This document shows, piece after piece, positions 8,426-64,000 of a stretch of 64,000 bases of DNA. The position numbers and the translations under genes were made by a program. A model generated the notes under the pieces. The model had not been told where the DNA came from. It saw only the letters and a list, made by a program, of their open reading frames with translations, and searched no databases. Numbering within the stretch: position 1 is the stretch's first letter; the number at the start of each line of letters is the position of its first letter. Source of the DNA: Candidatus Latescibacterota bacterium. GTDB lineage: Bacteria > Latescibacterota > UBA2968. The DNA lies in the NCBI GenBank assembly GCA_965222605.1, contig OZ244960.1, positions 5,805,280 to 5,869,279 of the forward strand, given 5' to 3'.

Positions 8426-10243
8426 CTACGGTCTTACCTCTGGCGAGAGTTTTACTTTAATCTGCAGAGTTGTGACGTCTGTAAAGTGAATCGCCAGTTT
8501 TCTGCGGCCTGTGTTATCGGCTTGTTTGGGATTGGGGGAGGTGGGCAAGGGGGTTGCGTCGAGAACTGTGAATACGGCTTCTGATGGTGATAAAATTTCC
8601 GCTTTGAGATGCTTGCCCCTGCGCGTTAGAAGGGCGGTTTGACCGTCGAGTTTGACGCTGGCTCTCGTGTGCATAAACCACCAGAGTTCAGACGGAGATT
8701 TGGCTTCAATGTCGTCGGTAATCACGACATGATTTTGGTCTATCATCTCAAAGGTGCGCTGTGCGCGCGTTGCATCATCGGCATAAACGTCGGTGAGGTC
8801 GAGAATAGCCGTCGCGTGATTGGCCTCGGATTTGAAGGATGTGATGGGGCATTTGGCTTTGGGATTCTGATCCGGGCCATTGCCGGGGTTGAACACGAGG
8901 GTGTTGTGCCCTTCGGCGCGGATGCGATAAAATTCCCACCGTTGGCGTTTGTTGCGATGTCTTTGATAGGTTTCGCGTTCCGTGCCCGAGTCGATAGCCC
9001 ATCGCTCGCCAAGTGCTTCAAGGATGAATGTGCCTTGATCGAGGTGCCGGTGCATGCCCAGATTGTAATTGCCGCCAGCCTGAATGCCCAGGACCAGCGC
9101 ATTGGGGTCGGTCCACGATGTGCGGAGAGTGGCAACATCAGCTTTGCGAAAGTGTTTGTTGAGGGGGAGGGTGCTCGGATCAAAGTCTTTTGCGCGGTCA
9201 TCGAACCACAGCAAGTCGAGCACAGTTCCCCTGCCGTATTGTCTGAGCGTATCGTAGCGAAACCAACTGTAGTGTTGTATGTCGTAGTGCTTGCCCATCC
9301 AGAAGTGCATGGGGGAACTCACGCGCCGAAACCCGCAATCGGCAAAGTCAAAACTGTAGCGATCTGCCCCCGAAATGTAAATCTGATAATCTCCGCTTTC
9401 TTTGAACCCGGGGGTGGCTGCGAGATCAAAATCTGTGCCGAGTGCGCTGAACAGGCTGGACAAAAAGAGCACGTTGTAACGCGCACCATAATCCCAATAG
9501 GTGACGCCTTCGATACCCGCGCCATCCGGGGCGTAAAAATGCATCGCCAGAGGAATGCTTTTGACGCCCGCGTGGAGAATTTCGCCGGCGAGTTCTGGTT
9601 CTTCATCGGCTATGACGAGCGCGCCCATGCCAAGTCCGCCGTTGCAGACCTGGTTCCAATTGTTGTGATTGCGCGTCCACCAGGCGTTTTCGCGATAGGC
9701 CATCAAGCCGGGTTTGAGACCCTTTTCCGCTATGGCTGTGCGAAGCACGCGCCGCTGCTCTTCTGTCCAATGGTTATACAACCAGTCGTATCCAACGGCA
9801 AAGGCATAAGTCATTTCTGCGGTGTCGAGAAAGTGATCGGGATTCCAATCTTTGAATTGCGCTGCGGCTTCGAGTTCGGCCCAGGCGCGTTCCAAATGGC
9901 GTTGTTCGCCCTCCATGAGATAGAGAAAGGCGAGTTGTCGCACCCGCTCTTTCACGCGGCGGCTGGTGGAGAGCAACCGCCTTCCATCCGGGATGCTGTA
10001 TTCCGAAGGTTTTTGCGTGAGTATTTTCTGGGTTTCTCGCTTGATCCTGCGATAGATTTTTGCGGCAACAGTGTCCTGGGCAATTTGTTTTTTGATGCGT
10101 ACGAGGGTGTTTGCATCCATCATCAGGCGCGGGTGGCCAGGTTTTAAGGTCATTAGAATCTGATCCCTATCCGGAGGGGTGAATGCTTCTGCGTGAGTTT
10201 GGATACTCAGTGCGAGGATGATTATTGAAATGATTGATTTCAT
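8426..10243 (-). CDS. Heparinase II/III-like (polysaccharide lyase-like) secreted protein
   Basis: Start at MKSIISIIILALSIQTHA (signal peptide); motifs NHNNWNQVCNGG and HRHLDQGTFILEALGERWAIDSG typical of heparinase II/III-like proteins. Confidence 0.75.
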   Translation of the reverse strand: MKSIISIIILALSIQTHAEAFTPPDRDQILMTLKPGHPRLMMDANTLVRIKKQIAQDTVAAKIYRRIKRETQKILTQKPSEYSIPDGRRLLSTSRRVKERVRQLAFLYLMEGEQRHLERAWAELEAAAQFKDWNPDHFLDTAEMTYAFAVGYDWLYNHWTEEQRRVLRTAIAEKGLKPGLMAYRENAWWTRNHNNWNQVCNGGLGMGALVIADEEPELAGEILHAGVKSIPLAMHFYAPDGAGIEGVTYWDYGARYNVLFLSSLFSALGTDFDLAATPGFKESGDYQIYISGADRYSFDFADCGFRRVSSPMHFWMGKHYDIQHYSWFRYDTLRQYGRGTVLDLLWFDDRAKDFDPSTLPLNKHFRKADVATLRTSWTDPNALVLGIQAGGNYNLGMHRHLDQGTFILEALGERWAIDSGTERETYQRHRNKRQRWEFYRIRAEGHNTLVFNPGNGPDQNPKAKCPITSFKSEANHATAILDLTDVYADDATRAQRTFEMIDQNHVVITDDIEAKSPSELWWFMHTRASVKLDGQTALLTRRGKHLKAEILSPSEAVFTVLDATPLPTSPNPKQADNTGRRKLAIHFTDVTTLQIKVKLSPEVRP

Positions 10244-14156: not shown

Positions 14157-16001
14157 TCATTTTTGATACAGTTCTATTCTGCGATTGCGGATGGTGAGCA
14201 TATACATCCATGCATTTTCCCGATGGCCTTTGCCAAAGGATATTTGGCCGGTTGCACCGGGTATGTCGGTAAGGGTTTCAAGGCGGTCTCGCAGGCGGTC
14301 TCGGGTGGTGCCGCCCGCGTTTATACCGTGCAGGATGGATAGCATGGCATCGTATCCGAGGGCGGCAACGATATTCTGTTCTTTGCCAAAGCGCGAGCGG
14401 TAGGCGTTGACGAAATTTTGCACGGATTCGAGGTGGCTCTGGTCGTAATATTTTGCGACAAAAACAGCACCATCGACATAATTGCCTCCGTCGCGAGCCA
14501 CTTGATCGTGGTTCCAGCCATCGCTGCCGAGTACCTGCGAAGAGACGAGGGCGGAGTGAAATTGAGGCGCAATGAGTAAGATGTCTTCTGCACCGCCCGC
14601 AATGAGGATGCCGTCCAGGGCTTTGACAACTTCGAGTTGCACTGTGTCGGGGTCAACTACGACGGGCGGTGGGGGGGCGATGTGTATGTTGCCGAGGATT
14701 AAGGAGTCAATTTCCGAAGCGAGACTGTCGGGTACTTGAAGTGCCAGTCCCGCGCTGCGGATGCGTTCAAATTGGCGGCGATAATCCGTGGTGCCCGGTT
14801 CATACCATTCTTGAATGAGCACTTCGGCACCGAGATCTTCGGCTCTGGTGGCAAATTCACGGGCGATGGTCCGGCCATAATCATCTCGAGATGCGAGTGA
14901 GGCCAGCGTTCGCAAGCCCTGTTTATTCACGGCGTGTTCTGCAATATGCCTGCCCTGCGCGCCCGGTGTTGCGTTGACTTGAAAAACATAGGAACTGAGG
15001 GATGCAATGCCATCGTCTGAGGCTGTTGGAGCCACCAGAGGCACTTTTTTGGCACTGAGCATGGTTGCGATAGGCGTGGTTTCCGCGCTTGTGAGAGCGC
15101 CGATGATGGCGAGTACTTCGCGTTCTTCAACAAGGTGCTGTGCCGCGCGTGCTGCGCGAATGGGGTCGCCTTCGGAATCTTCAAATATTAATTCGATCTG
15201 GTCGTGAGATACGAGTGCATTGCGGTCTCTCGCAAGTGTGATACCGTTGCGAAGGTTTTCGCCGTTTGGGGTGCCCAATGGGGCGATGACGCCAATTTTA
15301 TAGCGCGCATTTTTGGGTTCTGGAGCGGGTTGGGACGATGGAGTAGCGCGCGCGCGTATGAGGATTTGGCGCGCGTGTGCGGCAAATTGTCCGTTTGGAT
15401 GGTGATCGAGAAAGAAGGACAGGTGTTTGTTGCCCGTTTTGAGGTTGCCGAATTTTATGTGCCAGTGCGCTTTGCCAAAGGCAATGGCTTCATCGATGAT
15501 GGCGCGATTAAAGTCGATTTTCAGATTTTCGACCTCTGCATCGGTCAAGTTTTCGCTGCCAGATAATTGGCCCAGGCGGTCGGCTGCACGCGCTTTGGTG
15601 CGTATGTCGGCGCGGCTGGTGAGTACGCGCACATATTGTGTGGCAGCATTGTAAATCTGGTGCTGGTGAAAATAACAGTCGCCAATGATCAGGTCGGTTT
15701 CGGAGACGTATCGGCTGCGCGGGTAGTGATGTTGAAGCGCGATGGCCTCGTCCAGAGCCAGATCGTAAGCTTTCAATTTGTAGTGCGATTTTGCCAGCAG
15801 AAATCGCGCGGCAGAGGTGCGCTGGTTGGGGGGGTGTTGTTCGATAAGTTCGATAAACCCATTCCGGGCGTCTGATAATTTGTCCTGGTTATAATGGGCA
15901 AGTGCGCGTTGGAAAAGGGTTTCCGCTTTCTGACTGAAGATCTCACCCGATATTTGGGCAGAGAAGAGCAGGATAAGAAGGAGTATAGATAATTTTTTCA
16001 T
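14157..16001 (-). CDS. TPR-repeat plus type-1 periplasmic-binding-fold (LivK-like) protein
   Basis: 614 aa; signal peptide; N-terminal TPR-like helices, then YKIGVIAPLGTPNGENLRNG... typical of branched-chain-amino-acid-type binding proteins; ATGA overlap with upstream gene. Confidence 0.7.
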   Translation of the reverse strand: MKKLSILLLILLFSAQISGEIFSQKAETLFQRALAHYNQDKLSDARNGFIELIEQHPPNQRTSAARFLLAKSHYKLKAYDLALDEAIALQHHYPRSRYVSETDLIIGDCYFHQHQIYNAATQYVRVLTSRADIRTKARAADRLGQLSGSENLTDAEVENLKIDFNRAIIDEAIAFGKAHWHIKFGNLKTGNKHLSFFLDHHPNGQFAAHARQILIRARATPSSQPAPEPKNARYKIGVIAPLGTPNGENLRNGITLARDRNALVSHDQIELIFEDSEGDPIRAARAAQHLVEEREVLAIIGALTSAETTPIATMLSAKKVPLVAPTASDDGIASLSSYVFQVNATPGAQGRHIAEHAVNKQGLRTLASLASRDDYGRTIAREFATRAEDLGAEVLIQEWYEPGTTDYRRQFERIRSAGLALQVPDSLASEIDSLILGNIHIAPPPPVVVDPDTVQLEVVKALDGILIAGGAEDILLIAPQFHSALVSSQVLGSDGWNHDQVARDGGNYVDGAVFVAKYYDQSHLESVQNFVNAYRSRFGKEQNIVAALGYDAMLSILHGINAGGTTRDRLRDRLETLTDIPGATGQISFGKGHRENAWMYMLTIRNRRIELYQK

Positions 16002-16507
16002 TGAACAAAGTTGATAAAATCTTCTGGATGCAGTTTTTGGAGTCGCTGTTGAAGGCGTCCGGGGGGGTGTTTTTTGGATAGTTCGGCACTTTTTTTCATC
16101 ACTTTTTCATCTATGTAGATTGGCGCGTCAAATTTGAGTGCCATCAAGATCGCGTCGCTGGGGCGTGCGTCGAGTTCCAGAGGGGTTCCAGGGGAGGTGA
16201 GATGCAATTGCGCGCGATAGATGTGGTCTATGATGTCTGTGATGAGTGCGTGTTGAACGCTGGCTTGCAGGTTTTTAATGACTGTTCTGATCAAATCGTG
16301 TGCAAATGGACGCGGCGGTTTGTAGTCATCGCCTGAGATATGAAGGGCAAGTGAGAACATTTCGCCCATTTGAATCCATATTGGCACGCGGTGGTCGCCG
16401 TCTTTTTCTTTGAGCATAATGACCGGTTCTTCGAATTGGCGGTCGATAAATATGCCTTCGATTTGGGCTTCATAGACCATGGACGCGACCTCTGTGAGTT
16501 TTACCAA
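15998..16507 (-). CDS. Bifunctional nuclease family protein (DUF151/BFN)
   Basis: 169 aa; EPVIMLKEKDGDHRVPIWIQMGEMFSLA...PRPFAHDL matches BFN-domain pattern. Confidence 0.75.
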   Translation of the reverse strand: MVKLTEVASMVYEAQIEGIFIDRQFEEPVIMLKEKDGDHRVPIWIQMGEMFSLALHISGDDYKPPRPFAHDLIRTVIKNLQASVQHALITDIIDHIYRAQLHLTSPGTPLELDARPSDAILMALKFDAPIYIDEKVMKKSAELSKKHPPGRLQQRLQKLHPEDFINFVQ

Positions 16508-16589
16508 ATATAAAGGAGGGCAATGGAAGGGTCAAGCGGTCAGTCTAAACATACCGAGAATGATGCGGTAGTAATTTTAAGACATTTTT

Positions 16590-17036
16590 TTAGACATCAA
16601 CGGTTTTTGGATGAGTTTGTGGATGTTCTTTGCGCCATTGGTCAATTTTCTGTGCATCTGCTTCTGTCAAGACAATATGCCCTTTCGCGCTGTTTGGGAG
16701 GCCAACCCCAATACCTGCTTTCGCCATGGATTTGATAATTTTTTTAATGGTGTGAGGGGAGACATTCCAGGATTTTGCCAGGCTCGATACTGTGAAAATT
16801 TCTGAAGCCTGTCCGTTAATCGTATTTTCAGGATTTTGTATGATGTCTGACAAATTCACAGCCTGGGTCGCTGCATCAATTGTGATAGATACGAGCCTCC
16901 CCTGATCGTCGTATGAAAAGAGAATATTGTCATGTTCACCATCAACACCGGCATTTTCGGTTTTGGATACGAGGCCCTGAGCCAGCGTAATTTCCAGGGT
17001 ATCTGAATCGGGGAAATACATAAATGGCTCTTTCAT
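16590..17036 (-). CDS. DUF2283-domain protein fused to a C-terminal helix-turn-helix-like segment
   Basis: MYFPDSDTLEITL...DDQGRLVSITIDAA is the DUF2283 pattern; C-terminal FTVSSLAKSWNVSPHTIKKIIKSM looks like an HTH. Confidence 0.55.
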   Translation of the reverse strand: MKEPFMYFPDSDTLEITLAQGLVSKTENAGVDGEHDNILFSYDDQGRLVSITIDAATQAVNLSDIIQNPENTINGQASEIFTVSSLAKSWNVSPHTIKKIIKSMAKAGIGVGLPNSAKGHIVLTEADAQKIDQWRKEHPQTHPKTVDV

Positions 17037-17229
17037 GGTTTACTCCATATTTCCACTGTCAACTGCATCGATAATTGTCCGCAAATTTCTCAGTGTTTCA
17101 GGATGTTTTTCGAGCAGCACGGTGACAAAATAATTCGTGACGTTCATGCTCCAGCCTTGTAGCAAATTTACGCAACTACGAGAGTTATGACAACTGTAGA
17201 TGGGATGTTCGCAGATGTGAACGGCACAT

Positions 17230-17874
17230 TTAGTCCAAAACGAGTGAGACGGCGAGCCAGCCGCCTACGGGTATGATGTTGGATATGAGTTTGGGGTGGT
17301 TGGCAACGCGGCGGTTGTAGTCCTGTATGCCTCGGCGACCATCGCCTTCGGATAGTGCGCGGTGTGCGTGCCCGTGTCCATTGGCATTGTCGGCGATGAT
17401 GAGGCCGCCCGGGCGCGTGTTTTCAAGGGCAAAGTCGAGGTATTTGGGATAGCTTTCTTTGTCCGCGTCGATGAAGATGAGGTCAAAAGGTCCGTCCTGC
17501 GCCGCGTTTTTCATGAGTTCTGCGCCGTCGCCCAGGCGCACGTCTGTTCGGTCTGATAGCCCGGCTTTTTCGTAGTTTTGCTGCGTGACCTCGGCGTGTT
17601 TGGGCTCAATTTCCAGGGTGATGAATTGCCCGTTTTCGGGCAGTGCGCGGGCGAGCCAGATACCCGAATAGCCAGCGAGCGCGCCAAATTCGAGAATTTT
17701 TTTTGCGCCGATTGTCCTGGCGAGCAAATACAGGGTCTGCCCGGCTTCGGGGCTGACGGAGATTCGCGGAATACCCTGTTCGGCAGCGTTGGGCATGATG
17801 CTTTTGAGCAAGTCGTCTTCGCGGGCAAATACTTCCCGTTTATATGTGTTGAGATCGGGATAGGTTTGTTGCAT
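17230..17874 (-). CDS. Class I SAM-dependent O-methyltransferase (family 3, caffeoyl-CoA OMT-like)
   Basis: 214 aa; SAM motif ILEFGALAGYSGIW and FDLIFIDADKESYPKY. Confidence 0.85.
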   Translation of the reverse strand: MQQTYPDLNTYKREVFAREDDLLKSIMPNAAEQGIPRISVSPEAGQTLYLLARTIGAKKILEFGALAGYSGIWLARALPENGQFITLEIEPKHAEVTQQNYEKAGLSDRTDVRLGDGAELMKNAAQDGPFDLIFIDADKESYPKYLDFALENTRPGGLIIADNANGHGHAHRALSEGDGRRGIQDYNRRVANHPKLISNIIPVGGWLAVSLVLD

Positions 17875-52975: not shown

Positions 52976-53050
52976 GACCCCGTCGTTCAGTGGTTAGGAC
53001 ACCGGGTTTTCATCCCGGCAACGGGGGTTCGATTCCCCTCGGGGTCGCCA
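52976..53050 (+). tRNA. tRNA-Glu (anticodon UUC), CCA encoded
   Basis: Manual fold: acceptor GACCCCG/CGGGGTC, anticodon stem CCGGG/CCCGG with loop TTTTCAT, T-loop GGTTCGATTCC; aligns position by position with E. coli tRNA-Glu. Confidence 0.9.
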
Positions 53051-55285: not shown

Positions 55286-55380
55286 GGGGATGGCAGTGAG
55301 GTGCAGTCGGACTTTGAGGCCAAAGTGGAAGCGATAACGCGCTGATGGCCTGGCGTGCCGAAGTTTGCAAAAGGGGAGTG

Positions 55381-57150
55381 ATGATCATGCCCTGGGATAG
55401 CGATAGATTGTTGCAGCAAATCGAACTTGGCGAGGACAGCCGCGTCGAGTTCAAGGAAGTTGTGTTTGCTGGTGGTCGCGTGCGGGCACCGCGTCGGGAA
55501 ACCATCGCCGATGAATTGGCTGCTTTTGGCAACACCATCGGTGGCACATTGATCTTCAGTGTGTCAGACGCTGGTGAGGTGTGGTCGATGAACCGAAAAC
55601 AAATGGATGCGTTGGAAGCCTTCGTCAGCGAGAATTGTTCGGACAGCATCCGTCCTCCGTTGGCGTTCGTCACCCAACGGCTGGCCTTGCCAGACGGTTC
55701 GTTCGCGTTGGTCGTCGAAGTCGAACAGAGTGCGTTGGTACACAAGAGCTCCGGGGGATATCTTTCCCGGCAGGGTAGCACCAGGCGAGAGTTGTCGTCG
55801 GAAGCATTGCACCGCCTGTTTCAACAGCGGGGGCGTTCTGGCCTTCTTGGCCCTGACGAAGCGATTGTCGCTGGGACAGGGGCCAATACGCTCGATGCGA
55901 CGCTTGTGGACCGTTTCTTAAGTTCGCGTGCCACTGAGTCCACCGCGGCACAACTCGCAAAGCTGGGACTGGTGCGGGAGGATGACAACGGTGTGACCCG
56001 CGCAACAGTCGCCGGGGTGCTGCTTTGCACGATACGCCCGGATGAACACATACGCGGTGCGGTGATCGAAGCCGTTCGCTATCGCGGCACGGTACTCGGT
56101 CGTGCGAGCCAGCACGACGCGGCGTCAATTACTGGTCCATTGGATCGGCAGATCCGCGACGCCGTCAATTTCGCCAGGCTCAACACGCGGGTGGCGGCGC
56201 GCAAGGACCCCGGACGGGTGGAGGTCCCGCAATTCAGTCCGCGGGCGGTGTTCGAGGCCATCGTCAACGCCGTGGTCCACCGCGACTACTCAATGGAGAA
56301 TACGAAGATACGGCTCTTTATCTTCGACGATAGACTTGAGTTATGCTCTCCGGGTGCCCTGCCCAATACGCTGCCTATCGAAGCCATGCGAAATCGACAA
56401 GCCACCCGCAACGAAACGCTCGCGTCCGTCTTCCGTATGCTTGCAGTAGGGGATATCGTCGGTGCTGGCGACCAGCAGTACTTTTTGGAGCTACGCGGCG
56501 AAGGCGTTCCGATCATCTATGAGCAGACGCGGGATCTGACAGGGCACGACCCGAACTACGAACTGATCGGTGGCGCAGAACTGCGACTGACGATACCGTC
56601 CGCTCGTCCACCGGTAACGGGCATTGAAGGTGAAGTATCCGTATCTGCCGCGGGTCGGCCACTCGCGGGTGCAAAGGTCGTTGTGCTGTATCCCAACAAG
56701 ACCTGGATGGAGGGGGAGACCGATACGTTTGGCCGGGTCGGTTTCGAGTTTCACTCGGAACTCCCCATCACCGTTTTTTGTGCGGCATCGGGGCACACAG
56801 CCCATGTGGAGCGGAATTGGTACCCGCCAGAACTGCTCTCTGTACAGCTTGAGACGCTGCCAATGGGAGGATCAGAGATTTTCACGGAAGGAACAGGTCA
56901 TTTGCCCGATTTGACCGGGCGACTAAATCCGATCCTCGACGATCTAGACCGCATGTATCTTTACGCGATTAACGTCGCTATTGATGAAGGCAAGCAGCAA
57001 CCCGTTTATTTCAAACTGAATCAGCCCTTGCGGCTTACCGATGCCAACGGTTTTGAATGGGTCGTGCGGTTTGTTGAGATGATCGGAAGGTCGGCACTGC
57101 TGGAATACGAGTCCCCGGGCCAAAGACGGAGGACCAATGAACAGAGATGA
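55381..57150 (+). CDS. AlbA_2 (Schlafen-like) plus HATPase_c_4 DNA-binding protein with ~230-aa unassigned C-terminal extension
   Basis: Start MIMPWDSD after GGGGAG; LGEDSRVEFKEV...ELAAFGNTIGGTLIFSV (AlbA_2); AVFEAIVNAVVHRDYS (HATPase_c_4-like); C-terminus includes a beta-sandwich-like GEVSVSAAGRPLAGAKVVVLY. Confidence 0.75.
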   Translation: MIMPWDSDRLLQQIELGEDSRVEFKEVVFAGGRVRAPRRETIADELAAFGNTIGGTLIFSVSDAGEVWSMNRKQMDALEAFVSENCSDSIRPPLAFVTQRLALPDGSFALVVEVEQSALVHKSSGGYLSRQGSTRRELSSEALHRLFQQRGRSGLLGPDEAIVAGTGANTLDATLVDRFLSSRATESTAAQLAKLGLVREDDNGVTRATVAGVLLCTIRPDEHIRGAVIEAVRYRGTVLGRASQHDAASITGPLDRQIRDAVNFARLNTRVAARKDPGRVEVPQFSPRAVFEAIVNAVVHRDYSMENTKIRLFIFDDRLELCSPGALPNTLPIEAMRNRQATRNETLASVFRMLAVGDIVGAGDQQYFLELRGEGVPIIYEQTRDLTGHDPNYELIGGAELRLTIPSARPPVTGIEGEVSVSAAGRPLAGAKVVVLYPNKTWMEGETDTFGRVGFEFHSELPITVFCAASGHTAHVERNWYPPELLSVQLETLPMGGSEIFTEGTGHLPDLTGRLNPILDDLDRMYLYAINVAIDEGKQQPVYFKLNQPLRLTDANGFEWVVRFVEMIGRSALLEYESPGQRRRTNEQR

Positions 57151-57191
57151 GGTTCTGTATGTCATGAGTATTTTTTACGAGGTACATCGTT

Positions 57192-60100
57192 TTGAATAAT
57201 GCATTTTTCGAAAAGCCTGTCCTCAACTCGCCTTATGAGCGGCCTAACCTACATTGGGAACTGGATGGGGCAAGACAGCCAACCCAGAAAATCATCGAAA
57301 GCCGAAGGCAGGTCTCATTCATCACGGCGGTCCCGACATCGAAGAAGCAAAGGGGATCATCCTTGAATCAAGCCTCTCTTGTGTTCGACAAGGCCGCGAG
57401 GGAGCTTGAGACCGATAATCAGCAATACGAGTTGATGCAGACTATCAATGGTGTTCGCCGACAGATTGACCGGTGGCGCGAGCTACCGAACCCGAACCAA
57501 TGGCGTGTGACCGCGGAGACTGCCCGCTTGCTTCGGCACTGGCGGCACCACCAATTCAGTGGTATTCGCCCCTTTTTCTGCCAGGTGGAAGCAGTAGAAA
57601 CCGCAATATGGCTCACTGAGGTTGCGCCGAACATAGGGCAGGTGGGTAGGGGATTCCTCGACCATCTGGAAAACGCTAATAACGACGCCAATCCAGATTT
57701 GTCGCGATTGGCACTCAAGTTGGCGACAGGCGCAGGGAAGACCACTGTGATGGCGATGTTGATCGCCTGGCAGACCATCAATGCGGTCCGCCGACCCCAG
57801 AGCCGCAGGTTCACGCGCGGCTTTCTGGTGGTTACGCCCGGTATTACCATTAAGGATCGCTTGCGCGTGTTGCAGCCGAATGATCCGGATAGCTATTATC
57901 AGAGCCGCGAGTTGGTGCCGAGTGACATGCTTCCCGATCTGGAAAAGGCAAAAATTGTTATCACCAACTACCACGCCTTCAAGTTGCGCGAACGCATGGA
58001 ATTATCCAGAGGCGGGCGTTCCTTGCTTCAAGGACGGGGCGATGCACTAACGACCCTGGAGACCGAGGGACAGATGCTGCAACGGGTGATGCCCGAACTC
58101 ATGGGCATGAAGAATGTCATGGTTCTCAACGATGAGGCGCACCACTGCTATCGGGAGAAGCCGGGTGAGCAGGAAGAAGGCAGGCTTACGGGAGACGATA
58201 GGCAGGAAGCTAAAAAGAATGCGGAAGCTGCGCGGCTATGGATTTCCGGGCTTGAAACGGTGGGTAAAAAGCTCGGTATTAACCGGGTGATGGATCTTTC
58301 TGCGACGCCTTTCTTTTTGCGCGGGTCGGGTTATCGCGAAGGAACATTGTTTCCCTGGACGATGTGCGACTTCTCGCTGATGGACGCCATCGAATGCGGC
58401 ATTGTCAAACTGCCCCGGGTACCGGTGGCGGACAATATCCCCGGTGGCGATATGCCGAAGTTCCGCAATCTCTGGGAACACATCCGCACCCGCATGCCGA
58501 AGAGGGGACGGGGTAAGTCCAAACATCTCGATCCTTTGAGTTTGCCCGTAGAGCTACAAACTGCACTGGAGGCTTTGTACGGGCATTACGAAAAGACCTT
58601 CGCGCTTATGGATGAGGCTGGTATTAGTGTTCCGCCGTGCTTTATAGTGGTCTGTAATAATACCTCGACTTCCAAGCTGGTTTACGATTATATTTCTGGC
58701 TTCCACCGCGAAAACGATGATGGCTCAACGACGTTTGAAAACGGGCGTCTTGGGTTGTTCCGCAACTTTGACGAATATGGCAACCCGTATCCACTGCCTC
58801 GCACCTTGTTGATCGATAGCCATCAACTGGAGTCTGGTGATGCACTGGATAGTAACTTCCGCAAGATAGCCGCTGAGGAGATCGATCGTTTCCGACGGGA
58901 TCGCATCACGCGCACGGGCGACCGCGAGCAGGCTGAGAAGATCACCGACCAGGAGCTTCTCCGCGAGGTTATGAATACCGTTGGCAAACCCGATCAACTG
59001 GGGGCTTCGATTCGCTGTGTTGTGTCGGTATCAATGCTCACTGAAGGATGGGACGCGAATACGGTCAGCCATGTACTCGGCGTTCGCGCGTTTGGAACGC
59101 AGTTGCTATGCGAACAAGTCGTTGGTCGCGCGTTGCGGCGGCAATCTTATGATCTCAACGATGATGGTCTGTTCGATGTCGAGTACGCAGATGTATTGGG
59201 GATCCCCTTTGATTTTACGGCGAAGCCTGTTTCAGTGTCACCTCGGCCGCCGCGGGAAACTGTGCAGGTGAGGGCCGTGCGCCCCGAAAGGGATGAACTC
59301 GAGATTTATTTTCCGCGGGTAGCTGGGTACCGGGTGGAATTGCCCGAAGAGAGGCTCACTGCGGAGTTCAACGAGGATTCAGTGCTGGAACTCACGCCGG
59401 ATATGATTGGGCCGTCGCATACGACGAATCAGGGGATTATTGGCGAGGGTGTCGATCTCAATCTGGTTCACACAGGCGATCTTCGTCCTTCGACCCTTCT
59501 CTTTCACCTCACCCGTCGGTTGCTTTATACGAAGTGGCGCGATCCGGATGAGGATCCGAAGATGCATCTCTTTGGACAACTCAAGAGCATCACCAAACAA
59601 TGGCTTGATGGTTGTCTTGTTTGTAAAGGTGGCACGTATCCCGCGCAACTTATGTATCAGGCACTGGCTGACATAGCCTGCGAGCGCATCACGGCTGCCA
59701 TCACGCGAGCAAAAATCGATAGTCGTCCTGTCAAAGCGGTGCTCGATCCGTATAACCCTATCGGTTCCACCGCGCATGTCAACTTCAACACGTCTAAGAC
59801 CAGTCGCTGGGAGACCGACGCCCGCCGTTGCCATATCAATTGGGTTGTCCTCGATAGCGATTGGGAAGCAGAGTTTTGCCGCGTGGTCGAAGCTCATCCT
59901 CGTGTCAGAGCGTATGTGAAGAACCACAATCTGGGGTTGGAAGTACCTTACCGCTACGGCTCTGAAACGCGGACGTATATCCCGGACTTTATTGTTCTGA
60001 TTGATGATGGCCGTGGCGACGACGATCTCTTGCATCTCATCGTTGAGATCAAAGGCTATCGCAGAGAGGATGCCAAAGAGAAGAAGACGACTATGGACAC

Positions 60101-60260
60101 CTATTGGGTACCCGGTGTGAATAATCATGGTCGCTATGGTCGTTGGGCCTTTGCCGAGTTCACAGACGTCTATGAGATAGAGTCGGAATTTGAGGCCAAA
60201 ATGGAGGCGGTATTTGATGAGATGATTGAACAAAACGCCGCGCATTGCGTTTCTATGTGA
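57192..60260 (+). CDS. res: Type III restriction enzyme Res subunit (SF2 helicase plus C-terminal PD-(D/E)xK nuclease)
   Basis: 1022 aa, TTG start; Walker A LATGAGKTTVMAM, DEAH box LNDEAHHC, motif VI region, C-terminal YIPDF...VEIKGY. Confidence 0.88.
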   Translation: MNNAFFEKPVLNSPYERPNLHWELDGARQPTQKIIESRRQVSFITAVPTSKKQRGSSLNQASLVFDKAARELETDNQQYELMQTINGVRRQIDRWRELPNPNQWRVTAETARLLRHWRHHQFSGIRPFFCQVEAVETAIWLTEVAPNIGQVGRGFLDHLENANNDANPDLSRLALKLATGAGKTTVMAMLIAWQTINAVRRPQSRRFTRGFLVVTPGITIKDRLRVLQPNDPDSYYQSRELVPSDMLPDLEKAKIVITNYHAFKLRERMELSRGGRSLLQGRGDALTTLETEGQMLQRVMPELMGMKNVMVLNDEAHHCYREKPGEQEEGRLTGDDRQEAKKNAEAARLWISGLETVGKKLGINRVMDLSATPFFLRGSGYREGTLFPWTMCDFSLMDAIECGIVKLPRVPVADNIPGGDMPKFRNLWEHIRTRMPKRGRGKSKHLDPLSLPVELQTALEALYGHYEKTFALMDEAGISVPPCFIVVCNNTSTSKLVYDYISGFHRENDDGSTTFENGRLGLFRNFDEYGNPYPLPRTLLIDSHQLESGDALDSNFRKIAAEEIDRFRRDRITRTGDREQAEKITDQELLREVMNTVGKPDQLGASIRCVVSVSMLTEGWDANTVSHVLGVRAFGTQLLCEQVVGRALRRQSYDLNDDGLFDVEYADVLGIPFDFTAKPVSVSPRPPRETVQVRAVRPERDELEIYFPRVAGYRVELPEERLTAEFNEDSVLELTPDMIGPSHTTNQGIIGEGVDLNLVHTGDLRPSTLLFHLTRRLLYTKWRDPDEDPKMHLFGQLKSITKQWLDGCLVCKGGTYPAQLMYQALADIACERITAAITRAKIDSRPVKAVLDPYNPIGSTAHVNFNTSKTSRWETDARRCHINWVVLDSDWEAEFCRVVEAHPRVRAYVKNHNLGLEVPYRYGSETRTYIPDFIVLIDDGRGDDDLLHLIVEIKGYRREDAKEKKTTMDTYWVPGVNNHGRYGRWAFAEFTDVYEIESEFEAKMEAVFDEMIEQNAAHCVSM

Positions 60261-60274
60261 CCGATTGAGGAATC

Positions 60275-60437
60275 CATGAGAGAGAAAGTTTATATTGAAA
60301 CGACAGTGATTAGCTATCTGACTGCTTGGCGAAGTCCACAACTCTTGATGGCAGCACATCAAGAAGCAACGCGAATTTGGTGGGACGAACAGAAAAATAG
60401 ATTCGACCGTTCTTTGTACCCCTCTCGAATTGATTGA
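60275..60437 (+). pseudogene. PIN-domain (VapC-like) gene remnant, frameshifted and truncated
   Basis: MREKVYIETTVISYLTAWRSPQLLMAAHQ, then an extra A in CATCAAAGAAG shifts frame (stop 60398-60400); the +1 frame continues EATRIWWDEQKNRF... to a stop at 60435-60437; a full PIN protein would be about 3x longer. Confidence 0.45.
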
Positions 60438-60448
60438 GGAATAAGCTC

Positions 60449-60625
60449 ATGCGACCAGACCCAATCGTAGAAGAAGTTCGTAAAATACGCGATGCGTATG
60501 CTAAGCATTTCAATTATGACCTGGATGCGATTTGCCGAGATTTACAAGAGAAACAGAGGCTGGGCAAAAGAAGAGTGGTTTCTTTGCCGCCCAAACGCCC
60601 GAGAAAAATGAACGGCAACGGTTAG
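60449..60625 (+). CDS. Small partner protein of the PIN remnant (antitoxin-like)
   Basis: MRPDPIVEEVRKIRDAYAKHFNYDLDAICRDLQEKQ...; basic C-terminus; assignment by context and recollection of similar pairs only. Confidence 0.4.
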   Translation: MRPDPIVEEVRKIRDAYAKHFNYDLDAICRDLQEKQRLGKRRVVSLPPKRPRKMNGNG

Positions 60626-60676
60626 AAGCTGTTTTTAAACTCATTCTGTTCCCATCCCTGCCTATGACCAGGATAC

Positions 60677-60973
60677 GTGATGATGAATAGAGATGAAGTT
60701 CTGAATGTGCTCCGAGCGCACAAGCCGATTCTTTCGCAACGCTTTGGCGTCACAGAACTCGCCTTGTTTGGGTCCTTTGCCCGCGACCAGGCGACGGACA
60801 CCAGCGATGTTGATATTTTAGTGCGGTTCGGCACACCGCTCAATTGGCAACGCTACTTTGGAACGCAAGGCTACCTGGAAGACCTGCTTGGTCGGCCAGT
60901 AGATTTGGCAACTGACCAGGATCTGCGCGTCGAGATACGGCCCTACGTAGAACGGGAGGTGATCGATGTCTAA
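60677..60973 (+). CDS. MNT-type nucleotidyltransferase (antitoxin of HEPN-MNT modules)
   Basis: 98 aa; GSFARDQATDTSDVDILV signature. Confidence 0.8.
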   Translation: MMMNRDEVLNVLRAHKPILSQRFGVTELALFGSFARDQATDTSDVDILVRFGTPLNWQRYFGTQGYLEDLLGRPVDLATDQDLRVEIRPYVEREVIDV

Positions 60974-61019
60974 TGCCGAGCAGGGACCACGAGAGTGGCG
61001 CTTGTATGTGGGGCTATAA
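60966..61019 (+). pseudogene. 17-codon stub of the cognate HEPN (DUF86) toxin gene
   Basis: ATG overlaps the MNT stop as in intact HEPN-MNT pairs; MSNAEQGPREWRLYVGL then stop; sequence composition changes immediately after. Confidence 0.35.
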
Positions 61020-61042
61020 GCTAAATGGACATGGGTTGACAA

Positions 61043-61531
61043 ATGGAGACTTATACTCTATTCTATAATACTTTGTCAATATCAGAAAGGATAAGCCAGA
61101 TACCAGAAGGATCTTTAGCGAATTTAATGGCAAATATCAAAGTCAAGTGGCTCATATATACTGTGCTCGTGGGTGTCATACCTGCTCTCTTGCGAATATT
61201 GATATGGCTTATCTCACAGGACAGAACGATGGATATCTTCAACGCCTCAGACTTCGTGGCGTTTGGATTGATCTTACATATATCCAATATCAATGAAATA
61301 GAGCATTTCAATGATCACGAAAAATCTTGGAAAACAATTCAAAACGGGATCTCAATTGGTTTTATATCACTCTATAGTGTCTTATTCACGGCTTACTTAT
61401 TGGGACAATCTAACCCTGGATTGATCAGGGGTGAGACCATAAAATATATTTCTATGGTCTCCAGTCTTGTGTCGTTTCTCTTGAGTTTCTCCGTATATAA
61501 TAGAGTATCGAAACTGGTTGAGGAGGAATAA
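61043..61531 (+). CDS. AT-rich 4-TM membrane protein of unknown function
   Basis: 162 aa (alternative start Met29 at 61127); four hydrophobic segments; visibly more AT-rich than flanks; possible TTGACA-N17-TATTCT promoter at 61036-61064. Confidence 0.55.
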   Translation: METYTLFYNTLSISERISQIPEGSLANLMANIKVKWLIYTVLVGVIPALLRILIWLISQDRTMDIFNASDFVAFGLILHISNINEIEHFNDHEKSWKTIQNGISIGFISLYSVLFTAYLLGQSNPGLIRGETIKYISMVSSLVSFLLSFSVYNRVSKLVEEE

Positions 61532-61532
61532 A

Positions 61533-61649
61533 ATGTTTGAAACTATCCTTATCATAGTCTCAATTTTGGTTGCAATAATGGGTGTTGGTGTGGCGACCTG
61601 GTCTATTATGGACACGAGAAAACGGTTGAACGATAAATCTGAGGGATAG
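61533..61649 (+). CDS. 38-aa single-TM peptide
   Basis: Not in ORF track (<60 aa). GAGGAGG 7 nt upstream; MFETILIIVSILVAIMGVGVATWSIMDTRKRLNDKSEG. Confidence 0.45.
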   Translation: MFETILIIVSILVAIMGVGVATWSIMDTRKRLNDKSEG

Positions 61650-61783
61650 ACCACAGGTGCTGAAAAGCCCAATTTTTGATTCATAACCGCCCCTTGGCAG
61701 TACGTCTTGCTCCTCTCGCACAGCGAGGGTAATCATGAGTGAGACCGATCCCCTGGGGCTTTTTTTTCGGAGGCTTGAGTTAA

Positions 61784-61966
61784 ATGGCTCGAAGGACGCG
61801 CGCTAGATCCCCAAAGACTGTCGATACTATCCGACACTCGGACGCATCGCGAAAGAACATCCCCATAGCCGAGTATCAGGCTGTAATGGCGGACCATGAG
61901 CGAAGTCCCATTCAGGTCGCGTATGAGCGGCGTAATCAGAGAGAGACCAATGAAGACGACCATTGA
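61784..61966 (+). pseudogene. Diverged duplicate of the first ~50 codons of mod
   Basis: MARRTRARSPKTVDTIRHSDASRKNIPIAEYQAVMADHERSPIQVAYERRN aligns with the mod N-terminus MPRSKRIPKTVEALRHKDASRKNIPTVEYQAVMADDERSPIQVAYKRRN; includes a similar GGAGG RBS. Confidence 0.75.
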
Positions 61967-62195
61967 CATCCACGACGAGTTGCTGACCCGAGCGATACGG
62001 TACGCGAAAAACACCGGGCGCCCATTACATGCCGTAGTAGAAGAGGGCCTGCGCCAAGTGCTTCCCGCGTCGCCCGGTAGCCGCTACCGCCTACCCGACC
62101 TGAGCGAAGGGAAGGCTGGTGCGGACGACCCGCTGGCAGAGTACTCATGGCAGGAGTTGTGCAGAATAATCTACGAAGAACCGGAGGAGCAATGA
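61950..62195 (+). CDS. vapB: VapB-type antitoxin (DUF2191-like)
   Basis: Start MKTTIDIHDELLTRAIRYAK (typical M.TTIDIDDELL N-terminus). Confidence 0.7.
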   Translation: MKTTIDIHDELLTRAIRYAKNTGRPLHAVVEEGLRQVLPASPGSRYRLPDLSEGKAGADDPLAEYSWQELCRIIYEEPEEQ

Positions 62196-62380
62196 TCGCC
62201 ATATTGAAGGACTTTATATGTCGTCCAGGGGTGAGTGGGGGCGTTATACATGATGCCCGAGTTGCTGCCATTTGCGTCGCCCACGGTATTGATGCACTGC
62301 TCACCCGAGATCGCGATTTCTCATTGTTTCCGGAGTTGAAAACACGCAATCCGTTCGAGCCGCCAGCAGGCAGTGGTTAG
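62192..62380 (+). pseudogene. vapC: Truncated VapC (PIN) toxin, only the C-terminal ~45 residues conserved
   Basis: ATGA overlap with vapB; MIAIL then directly ...VIHDARVAAICVAHGIDALLTRDRDFSLFPELKTRNPF; 62 aa instead of ~130, N-terminal acidic residues missing. Confidence 0.6.
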
Positions 62381-62402
62381 AATATTCTGGAGGATATGAA
62401 CG

Positions 62403-64000
62403 ATGCCCAGATCAAAACGCATACCCAAGACCGTGGAAGCCCTGCGGCACAAGGACGCATCACGAAAGAATATCCCCACAGTCGAATATCAGGCTGTGAT
62501 GGCGGACGATGAGCGAAGCCCCATCCAGGTTGCGTACAAACGCCGCAACCGCGACCTCGATCCCCAATTGGTATGGCGTGGCAAGGATGAACAGGATTGG
62601 TCAGATTTGGTGGTACAGGCGCCGCCTCTGTACATTCAAGAGAAGGTTCACCCCAAGGTGCTGATCGACGATTTGATGCGCCAGAGCGAGGAAGACGTTG
62701 CGAGTGAGTCGGGCTTCCAGACCGATCTCTTCGCCGATTTCAATGGCCTGCCTTCAGAGGATGCTAAGACCGAGTTCTATCAGCACGACGCCAACTGGTC
62801 GAACCGCATGATCCTCGGCGATAGCTTGCAGGTGATGGCATCGCTGGCTGAGCGCGAAGGACTGCGCGGCAAGGTGCAGTGCATATACATTGACCCGCCT
62901 TATGGGATTAAGTTCAATTCTAATTTCCAGTGGTCAACCACCAGCCGAACCGTGCGAGACGGCAAAGCCGAGCACATTACCCGAGAGCCGGAGCAAGTGA
63001 AGGCGTTTCGGGATACATGGCGGGATGGGATTCATTCGTATTTGACATATCTGCGGGATCGGCTGGCTGTGGCGCGGGATTTGTTGACGGAGAGTGGTTC
63101 TGTATTTGTACAGATTGGGGACGAGAATGTACATCGGGTGCGGGCGGTGATGGATGAGGTGTTTGGGGAGGAGAATTTTGTTGCAGGAATAGTAATCACT
63201 AAAACGACCAGCGCAACTTCTCTTTATATGGCTGGAATTTGCGACTATATCCTTTGGACTGCGAAGAATTACAAAGCGTTGAAATATCGCCAGCCATTCC
63301 GCGAAAAAAGGGCAGGCGAAGCAGGAGCTGCTTTATACAACCGCATTCAAAGTGCCGATGGGGGAACCGTTCGCGCCTTGTCCAAAGGTGAAGACTACGA
63401 GCGAGATTTTTCAAATGAAGGTTGGTTTCTCGTAACATCTGACAATTTTTTGTCACAGTCTGGGGGACGGACCACACAGCAGCCGTTTTTATTTCAAGGA
63501 GAAGTGTATAGACCATCAAGCGGAGGGTGGAAAACAAACTCGGAAGGAATAAAGCGTCTAATTGCAGCGTCTCGTATAACTAAAGGTGGACGAGCACCGC
63601 GATATATCCGCCGCATTAAGGATTTTCCCGTATCTCCTGTTGCAAATGTTTGGGATGATATGTTGACAGGAAGTTTTACTGAAGAAAAGAGATATGTAGT
63701 ACAGACTGCGGAGAAGATTGTCCAACGCTGTATTCTCATGGCCACCGACCCCAGCGACCTCGTTCTCGATCCAACTTGTGGCTCTGGCACAACCGCGCAT
63801 GTCGCCGAACAGTGGGGACGCCGCTGGATCACGATTGATACCTCTCGTGTCGCGCTGGCGCTGGCTCGTGCCCGCATCATGGGCGCACGTTATCCCTATT
63901 ACCTGCTTTCCGATAGTCGTGAGGGGCAGTTGAAAGAGGCAGAGATCGAGCGCAGAGTCCCCTCAGATGCGCCCACCTATAACAACATCCGCCAGGGCTT
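62403..64000 (+). CDS. mod: Type III DNA methyltransferase Mod subunit (N6/N4 class), 3' end beyond window
   Basis: Not in ORF track (open to window edge). ATG 62403 after GGAGG; motif IV IYIDPPYG (DPPY) precedes motif I DPTCGSGTTAHVA. Confidence 0.88.
   Translation, partial: MPRSKRIPKTVEALRHKDASRKNIPTVEYQAVMADDERSPIQVAYKRRNRDLDPQLVWRGKDEQDWSDLVVQAPPLYIQEKVHPKVLIDDLMRQSEEDVASESGFQTDLFADFNGLPSEDAKTEFYQHDANWSNRMILGDSLQVMASLAEREGLRGKVQCIYIDPPYGIKFNSNFQWSTTSRTVRDGKAEHITREPEQVKAFRDTWRDGIHSYLTYLRDRLAVARDLLTESGSVFVQIGDENVHRVRAVMDEVFGEENFVAGIVITKTTSATSLYMAGICDYILWTAKNYKALKYRQPFREKRAGEAGAALYNRIQSADGGTVRALSKGEDYERDFSNEGWFLVTSDNFLSQSGGRTTQQPFLFQGEVYRPSSGGWKTNSEGIKRLIAASRITKGGRAPRYIRRIKDFPVSPVANVWDDMLTGSFTEEKRYVVQTAEKIVQRCILMATDPSDLVLDPTCGSGTTAHVAEQWGRRWITIDTSRVALALARARIMGARYPYYLLSDSREGQLKEAEIERRVPSDAPTYNNIRQG

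Follow-up and report, generated by a model that had tools for sequence, protein, structure and literature searches.

A Type III-like restriction–modification operon with decayed toxin–antitoxin cassettes between res and mod

We analysed a 64,000-nucleotide stretch of the genome of a Candidatus Latescibacterota bacterium (GenBank assembly GCA_965222605.1, contig OZ244960.1, positions 5,805,280 to 5,869,279; hereafter the window), near the 3′ end of which the restriction gene (res, 57192–60260) and the modification gene (mod, from 62403) of a restriction–modification (R–M) system stand apart. The reading that we favour, and consider likely, is that the two genes form one functional-looking, Type III-like R–M operon of the BPTD_3080 family, and that the spacer between them is a tolerated embedding site whose content turns over by recombination and whose toxin–antitoxin (TA) cassettes decay toxin first. 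An initial annotation of this DNA had noticed that res and mod are not adjacent, and indeed 2142 bp separate the 3′ end of res from the start of mod; all elements in this gap lie on the plus strand. It had also described every toxin in the gap as disabled and the antitoxin side as intact, which holds for all three cassettes: PIN, HepT and VapC carry deletions, and the PIN partner, the nucleotidyltransferase MNT and VapB are full length.

A scan for relatives, with one genome taken per species, returned 278 stretches encoding Res relatives. The best 80 (L001–L080) encode proteins 72–92% identical to the Res of the window, in hosts from Latescibacterota, Acidobacteriota, Gemmatimonadota, Planctomycetota, Proteobacteria, Chloroflexota and other groups. 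Paired loci, defined by a long tblastn match to Mod lying 3′ of Res in the same orientation, numbered 65; the remainder were mostly contig-end cuts or split matches. The gene order is res then mod in all 65. The gap is shorter than 80 bp in 18 of these loci and measures 150–4631 bp in 47 (72% occupied); the median is 1023 bp, and the window ranks 58th of the 65 by res–mod distance. Separation is thus the norm in BPTD_3080-family loci, not a sign of decay, and the concern that the two genes of the window might have become uncoupled largely falls away. Among spacer open reading frames (ORFs) of at least 200 amino acids, 33 of 34 (97%) point in the same direction as the two core genes (p = 4e-9). 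When 129 spacer ORFs were compared with Pfam, the families recorded were HATPase_c_4 (11), AlbA_2 (9), PIN (6), Bro-N (4), MNT (3) and HicB (3), and further 23S-rRNA-IVP, DUF1828, ImmA/IrrE with a helix-turn-helix, DUF1016/YhcG, NYN, DUF4411, Fic, HepT, GmrSD, BrnT and DUF4062. The commonest spacer occupant is a Schlafen-like gene.

The cassette nearest to res contains the remnant of a PIN-domain toxin (60276–60437, plus strand, 53 amino acids), which was recognized by blastn and translation against the intact 157-residue PIN proteins of L012 and L014. The initial annotation reported a frameshifted PIN stub with a small partner; both are present, but the lesion is more than a frameshift. An internal deletion of 304 bp has removed codons 45–146 of 157, and the 11 codons of the 3′ end remain, in a different frame, at 60409–60441. 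The intact PIN of L014 matches PF01850, the stub of the window matches no Pfam family, and L009 has a different PIN lesion. The partner ORF that follows (60449–60625, plus strand, 58 amino acids) is intact. Its identity is 81–93% both to the ORF after the intact PIN gene of L012 and L014 and to the copies that stand alone in L007, L018 and L032. The partner ORF matches no family in Pfam or NCBIfam scans, and its position next to the PIN gene makes it a presumed antitoxin.

The second cassette is of the MNT–HepT type. Its MntA-type nucleotidyltransferase antitoxin (60683–60973, plus strand, 96 amino acids from the ATG used in relatives) is intact, matches PF01909 (53.8 bits) and the PADLOC model PDC-S09 (97.5 bits), scores 43.3 bits against NF047752, below the cut-off of 60, and is 72–89% identical to the MNT proteins of intact MNT–HepT pairs. 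The HepT toxin has been reduced to a 17-codon stub (60966–61019, plus strand), as the initial annotation had seen. Fourteen of these codons are homologous to the 123-residue protein, and they align with the N-terminus of intact HepT in L007, L015, L018 and L022 (PF01934, 99 bits); L078 also encodes an intact HepT. The stub is without the RNRLAHSY motif seen in relatives, so the window does not hold the HepT with Rx4HxY beside MNT by which Type VII TA systems are recognized. The truncation junction of the window is shared with L003, and the HepT genes of L014 and L021 carry different internal deletions.

The third cassette, directly upstream of mod, is of the VapBC type. VapB (61950–62195, plus strand, 81 amino acids) is intact, matches PF09957 (23.7 bits, cut-off 23.4) and is 89–93% identical to the VapB proteins of L002, L003 and L023, where the VapBC pair is intact. 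Comparison with the 150-residue VapC of the same three loci shows that the 62-residue VapC remnant (62192–62380, plus strand) arose, relative to L003, by a clean in-frame deletion of 264 bp that joins MIAI to LKDF. The 88 missing codons include the N-terminal catalytic part, in agreement with the half-deleted VapC first described. The remnant scores 24.9 bits against TIGR00028, compared with 83.9 bits for the VapC of L003 and a cut-off of 73.6, and the complete VapC that defines a Type II VapBC system is therefore absent from the window. No other VapC lesion was seen among the relatives.

The deletion junctions are real. Unitigs of metagenome run X1 match the window with 0 mismatches across 59835–60326, 60476–61557 and 61528–62568, and unitigs of runs X3, X5 and X7, which belong to other studies, independently bridge the PIN, AT-rich block and VapC junctions; the VapC deletion junction is bridged in all four. 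Together, the unitigs of these four independent runs span every deletion junction. Across the data set, spacers contain nine orphan antitoxins whose toxin is missing or defective; the reverse case, a toxin lacking its antitoxin, was not seen. The same cassettes occur intact in relatives, the lesions of L009, L014 and L021 are independent of those in the window, and L007, L018 and L032 retain the PIN partner only, which bears out the proposal that toxins were purged after arrival. Relatives with intact toxins, which the initial annotation had named as potential evidence against its proposal, do exist, but they show that cassettes arrive intact and decay later.

The spacer also varies between close relatives. 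Over 8–10 kb upstream of res, the window aligns collinearly with L001, L002, L003 and L065 at 90–94% nucleotide identity, yet the spacers all differ. From res to mod, the spacer of L065 contains an 80-bp promoter-like module and a gene for a 38-residue transmembrane peptide (TM38), followed by a type A mod; that of L001 contains the promoter module, TM38 and a 4.2-kb insert, again followed by a type A mod. L003 has a HepT-stub fragment, the promoter module, TM38, a type A remnant and an intact VapBC before a type B mod, and L002 has a 55-bp copy of the mod start and an intact VapBC before a type B mod. Compared with these four, the window adds the PIN–partner cassette, MNT and a membrane gene. 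Alternative joints are present in the same metagenomes, namely 60253>61023 and 61102>61523 (an L001-like spacer), 60627>62398 (the partner gene straight onto the mod leader) and 60253>60682. Inserts in 47 of 65 loci, four collinear genomes that differ and alternative joints within the same samples support the earlier suspicion that the res–mod junction is a recurrent hotspot. The insert of L001 (13395–17665 of that locus) lies in the mod leader, has a T7 repeat at its flanks and holds seven ORFs of 68–226 amino acids, none of which matches Pfam.

Upstream of VapB lies a remnant of a mod 5′ end (61784–61936, plus strand, about 51 codons, with the frame open to 61966). The initial annotation took it for a diverged copy of the mod 5′ end. 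A partial mod copy is present, but its origin is not local: with the start of the real mod genes of L001 and L065 it shares 87–94% nucleotide and 90% amino-acid identity, and its nucleotide identity to the mod of the window itself is only 78%. The remnant therefore belongs to the type A allele and points to an allele replacement rather than a local duplication. In-situ insertion with a long target duplication was considered and ruled out, the L001/L065 allele being by far the better fit. L002, L003 and L023 share with the window exactly the same left junction, at which the mod remnant meets VapB, so this event occurred once.

The two core genes look functional. The res gene (57192–60260, plus strand) encodes an intact restriction endonuclease of 1022 amino acids, which scores 1366.6 bits against the NCBIfam model NF046055 of the BPTD_3080 family (cut-off 800), residues 6–1003 covering profile positions 1–969 of 970. 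Its N-terminal helicase-like ATPase of superfamily 2 (SF2) and its C-terminal PD-(D/E)xK nuclease match PF04851 (ResIII) and PF19778 (RE_endonuc), and the translation contains GAGKT (Walker A), DEAH and PD...EIK. A sequence search of the PDB with Res gave no match, and a literature search on BPTD_3080 found nothing. The mod gene (62403–64000, plus strand, running off the window) is a type B allele for a Type III-like, beta-class N6-adenine methyltransferase; its frame is open for the 532 codons to the window end, of about 940, and Mod lengths in relatives are 903–1124 amino acids. Mod matches PF01555 (111.5 bits) and, as its top PADLOC match, MTase_III (718.7 bits); its closest solved structures are the Mod subunits of H. 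pylori and EcoP15I (PDB 6k0w, 4zcf). DPPY occupies residues 164–167 and DPTCGSG lies near residue 450, which places motif IV upstream of motif I with the target recognition domain between them, and identifies motif I as xCGSG. The motifs first listed for Res, and the DPPY of Mod, are thus all present; the FxGxG listed for Mod is not there in literal form.

The resident mod is 90% identical to that of L002 and L003 up to 63181 and unalignable beyond, which marks the start of a variable region. Contigs from metagenomes and metatranscriptomes are interrupted or part ways at 62671–62768 and at 63182, with several alternative continuations, which suggests that the variable regions of mod are segmentally shuffled within the population. 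In L003, where VapC is intact, mod (14324–17280 of that locus) consists of two overlapping ORFs of 502 and 522 amino acids, a split that may be a genuine frameshift or may stem from a sequencing error.

Small accessory cassettes, such as TA pairs, Schlafen/AlbA_2 ATPases and other defence-type genes, build up in the res–mod spacer of this family in operon orientation. We propose that spacer content then turns over by recombination among related loci of co-resident strains, with the conserved 3′ end of res, the conserved 5′ end and leader of mod, and cassettes shared among loci as probable anchors, and that frequent deletions afterwards trim the cassettes. Three features look like footprints of such recombination: the type A mod remnant upstream of VapBC and the type B mod, the mod-leader motif GGTTAGAA kept at the 3′ end of the partner gene, which in L012 directly abuts the mod leader, and the abrupt loss of identity within mod at 63181. 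Loss of an antitoxin while its toxin is active would kill the cell, so that only toxin-first or whole-cassette deletions would survive and orphan antitoxins would accumulate. In the window genome, PIN, HepT and VapC have each been destroyed by a single deletion. Transcription of mod probably relies on read-through together with a conserved internal promoter-like element, in which case separation from res need not disable the system.

The promoter-like element lies in a conserved 80-bp module (61023–61102, plus strand), found by promoter scan and conservation, and was absent from the inventory of the initial annotation. It consists of TTGACA (61036–61041), a 17-nucleotide spacer and TATTCT (61059–61064), resembles a sigma-70 promoter (scan score 10/12) and may well be active. 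The element stands just after res in L001, L003 and L065, where the hexamers are conserved and the bases between them vary. A terminator scan of the gap predicted no intrinsic terminator; a T-run at 61760–61768, considered as a candidate, was not called by the scan, and its fold is unremarkable (z = -1.4). Locus sequence is also present in RNA runs, three of which carry the label sponge metagenome. Metatranscriptome contigs 95–99% identical to the window cover res, the cassettes and mod, and one contig of 1236 nucleotides links the start of mod with MNT, VapB and the deletion junction of VapC. The conserved element, the lack of a predicted terminator in the gap and the contigs that run from the cassettes into mod together argue that mod is still expressed.

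Several points weigh against our interpretation. The 3′ half of mod lies beyond the window end, and the R–M activity of Res and Mod is a prediction from their sequences. The promoter was called by its match to a consensus, and the promoters of this phylum are uncharacterised. The RNA contigs, which are unstranded and derive from related strains, may partly reflect carried-over DNA and do no more than suggest expression. Some of the orphan-antitoxin cases may share ancestry, and the ratio of nine to zero consequently overstates their independence; at least seven distinct junctions are evident. Finally, the ratio of nonsynonymous to synonymous substitution rates (dN/dS) is 0.07–0.22 for the orphan antitoxins and, at 0.15–0.24, equally low for the toxin remnants, so that orphans that are merely young look the same as orphans still under selection.

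This last point bears directly on the strongest alternative, in which the spacer is curated rather than a graveyard and the orphan antitoxins and other spacer genes are kept for what they do, for instance as anti-addiction immunity against incoming elements with the cognate toxins or, in the case of VapB and MNT, as DNA-binding regulators of the downstream mod. All three antitoxin ORFs are full length with low dN/dS, the VapC-deleted allele recurs in four runs of different studies and in RNA-derived contigs, partner-only and MNT-only states are recurrent among relatives, and the MNT family is itself a PADLOC defence candidate, PDC-S09. However, the similar ratios of the toxin remnants mean that the antitoxin signal may reflect recent deletions, and L065, L001 and similar relatives have lost entire cassettes. 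We regard such curation as possible but unlikely. A broader proposal would make the spacer a real landing pad for cassettes in a widely transferred R–M family. Recombination among strains that live together would bring in new modules at the leader or 5′ end of mod, the operon would express them, and a filter would then leave orphan antitoxins in place as anti-addiction immunity or mod regulators; the proposal would add that the AT-rich membrane pair is an undescribed defence or abortive-infection module. As a whole, this combination appears rather improbable.

If the spacer were a site dedicated to site-specific cassette capture, in the manner of an integron or a shufflon, each new cassette would be inserted at a defined sequence in the mod leader and displace its predecessors towards res. 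Such a site could account for the 14-nucleotide footprint of the type B mod leader, GGCAryGGTTAGAA, which is present twice, at the 3′ ends of the partner gene and of VapC. It could also account for the occurrence of the same leader after different cassettes in L012, where the partner gene directly abuts it, and in L002, L003 and L023, for the HepT genes that abut the mod start codon in L014, L015, L018, L021 and L022, and for the T7 repeat in the mod leader that flanks the insert of L001. Yet the ORFs at 53–64 kb include no integrase or recombinase gene in or beside the locus, and no recurring attC-like or inverted repeat marks the cassette flanks apart from the twofold footprint; an integron-like array would have an adjacent recombinase and a recurring boundary site. 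Leaders and junction sequences moreover differ between mod alleles, and homologous and illegitimate recombination account for the mosaic without dedicated machinery. We give the capture-site model very little credence.

It is also highly unlikely that Res and Mod come from separate systems, or from one that no longer works, within a decaying defence island where mod is perhaps an orphan methylase. The 2.1 kb between the genes, the replacement of an earlier mod allele (the remnant at 61784–61936), the split mod of L003 and the unseen 3′ half of mod could all be taken in this way, but res is followed by mod in 65 loci across many phyla, with the two genes adjacent in 18, Res is full length, Mod is open for all its visible codons, and both genes are represented in metatranscriptome contigs. 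We therefore retain the initial assignment of res and mod to one system. Errors of assembly or binning in a metagenome-assembled genome can be practically dismissed as the cause of the deletions and the mosaic, since the junctions are covered by the mismatch-free unitigs of X1 and independently by those of X3, X5 and X7, even though the source is evidently metagenomic and related strains with alternative spacers share samples.

Between the promoter module and the mod remnant lies an AT-rich pair of membrane genes. The first (61127–61531, plus strand, 38% GC) encodes an intact polytopic membrane protein of 134 amino acids, which has 560 homologues of typically 134–137 amino acids and no Pfam family; the second (61533–61649, plus strand) encodes the 38-residue single-transmembrane peptide. 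In eleven sampled loci from several lineages (L081–L091, some of them near-identical copies), the membrane gene is always followed by a homologous ORF for a transmembrane peptide of 36–44 amino acids, and it is AT-rich relative to the host in every context sampled. The pair is thus a genuine conserved two-gene module, as the initial annotation had recognized when it described an AT-rich membrane cassette; that cassette is intact, however, and not decayed. The large gene has been lost via three different junctions in L001, L003 and L065, all of which keep the peptide at 97–100% identity. Elsewhere the pair usually stands directly 3′ of a Type ISP restriction enzyme, and in L081 beside an 89-residue Type ISP remnant. 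It lies upstream of DUF6414 in L088–L091 and, in a single lineage, of a lipase-like protein (L084–L087); both partners are absent from the window and L001. The module may be an uncharacterised defence-associated one.

The gene directly upstream of res (55345–57150, plus strand, 601 amino acids) is a Schlafen/AlbA_2 and HATPase_c_4 accessory gene (PF04326, PF13749). Its homologues, 76–92% identical, lie upstream of res in L001–L003, L015, L032 and L065, and inside the res–mod spacer in seven relatives (L005, L009, L012, L014, L017, L022 and L035). In L015 and L032, a 28-codon MNT 5′ fragment (9901–9984) is located between the Schlafen-like gene and res, so cassette debris occurs at the res-upstream junction too. 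A tRNA-Glu gene (52976–53050) lies 2.3 kb upstream of the R–M locus with two metabolic genes between. Because this stretch is syntenic in L001–L003 and L065, the R–M system is not an obvious recent tRNA-targeted island; the operon occupies a conserved chromosomal site in a Latescibacterota-type genome.

On the other side of the operon, the gene 3′ of mod varies among L001–L080, even among syntenic relatives. Examples are a UvrD-like helicase of about 690 amino acids (at least 10 loci), a 329-residue AAA ATPase, AAA_15/21 and ABC-type ATPases, a reverse transcriptase and, in L029 (17848–21219), Schlafen-like domains fused to a Piwi domain. The R–M system sits within a wider defence island. The frequent UvrD-like helicase or AAA ATPase after mod raised the question of membership in the Hma systems, which we rejected: no Hma model is among the PADLOC matches listed, comprising both matches of Res and the best 25 of 46 for Mod, with MTase_III at the top.

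These findings extend embedding to a Type III-like R–M family that is spread across many phyla. They also provide a natural decay series, in which syntenic genomes, and also strains of a single community, carry the same TA cassettes intact, singly deleted or as orphan antitoxins; the series illustrates both the toxin-first filter and the speed at which a defence locus turns over. For annotation, a res–mod gap in the BPTD_3080 family should not count as pseudogenisation. The membrane module, which elsewhere stands beside Type ISP enzymes and DUF6414, may merit follow-up as a lead from 'guilt by embedding'.

In classical Type III R–M systems such as EcoP1I and EcoP15I, Res relies on Mod for recognition, and ATP-dependent cleavage takes place between asymmetric sites in inverse orientation. 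Like them, the system described here has two subunits. Its Mod shares with Type III Mod the motif arrangement of a beta-class N6-adenine methyltransferase, with DPPY before the S-adenosylmethionine (AdoMet) motif and a variable middle region, and its Res shares with Type III Res the SF2 helicase-like ATPase and the C-terminal PD-(D/E)xK nuclease. In contrast, the window and the 65 loci have res before mod, whereas the classical order is mod then res, and Mod is about 940 rather than about 640 amino acids long. Res belongs to a separate NCBIfam family, BPTD_3080, and matches curated Type III Res models weakly: it scores 14.8 bits against NF012027 (cut-off 564), and the PADLOC model REase_III recognizes its nuclease domain only (20.6 bits). 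The Type III label of the initial annotation thus suits Mod, but gene order and Res make Type III-like the better term.

Allelic shuffling of Type III mod genes, including exchange of target recognition domains, is familiar from Haemophilus, Neisseria and Helicobacter. The mod gene here resembles these in its conserved 5′ part, its sharp drop in identity at 63181 and the several alternative continuations in the population, but differs in that a 5′ remnant stayed behind when the allele was replaced, and a TA cassette came with the new allele. That TA loci decay toxin first is likewise standard TA biology, and the VapBC, MntA/HepT and PIN–partner cassettes resemble degenerate chromosomal TA loci in having lost the toxin first and kept the antitoxin. 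Unlike in the usual degenerate loci, three TA families have decayed side by side in one operon, and close relatives supply both intact and independently deleted versions of the same cassettes.

The closest precedent for the spacer is the embedding of accessory or defence genes between core genes of defence systems. Known examples are PrrC in the Type IC EcoprrI locus, TgvAB in a Type I R–M system of V. cholerae, and BrxU in BREX. In the family described here, non-core genes likewise lie between core genes, on the same strand, and recur across homologous systems. Payne et al. (2024; bioRxiv 10.1101/2024.01.29.577857) reported that 62.7% of Hma systems hold embedded genes and that, across Hma, BREX, DISARM and Type I systems, 96.7% of such genes share the orientation of their system; the corresponding values here, 72% and 97%, are close to these, and GmrSD, PIN and MNT-type genes are common to both sets of occupants. 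Their census covered Hma, BREX, DISARM and Type I R–M systems, and the Type III-like family lies outside it. The spacer of the window differs from published embedding in that it holds mostly inactivated TA modules, rather than working defence genes. We conclude that the locus clearly combines embedding of a known kind with toxin decay of the ordinary sort, and is not a novel type of system.

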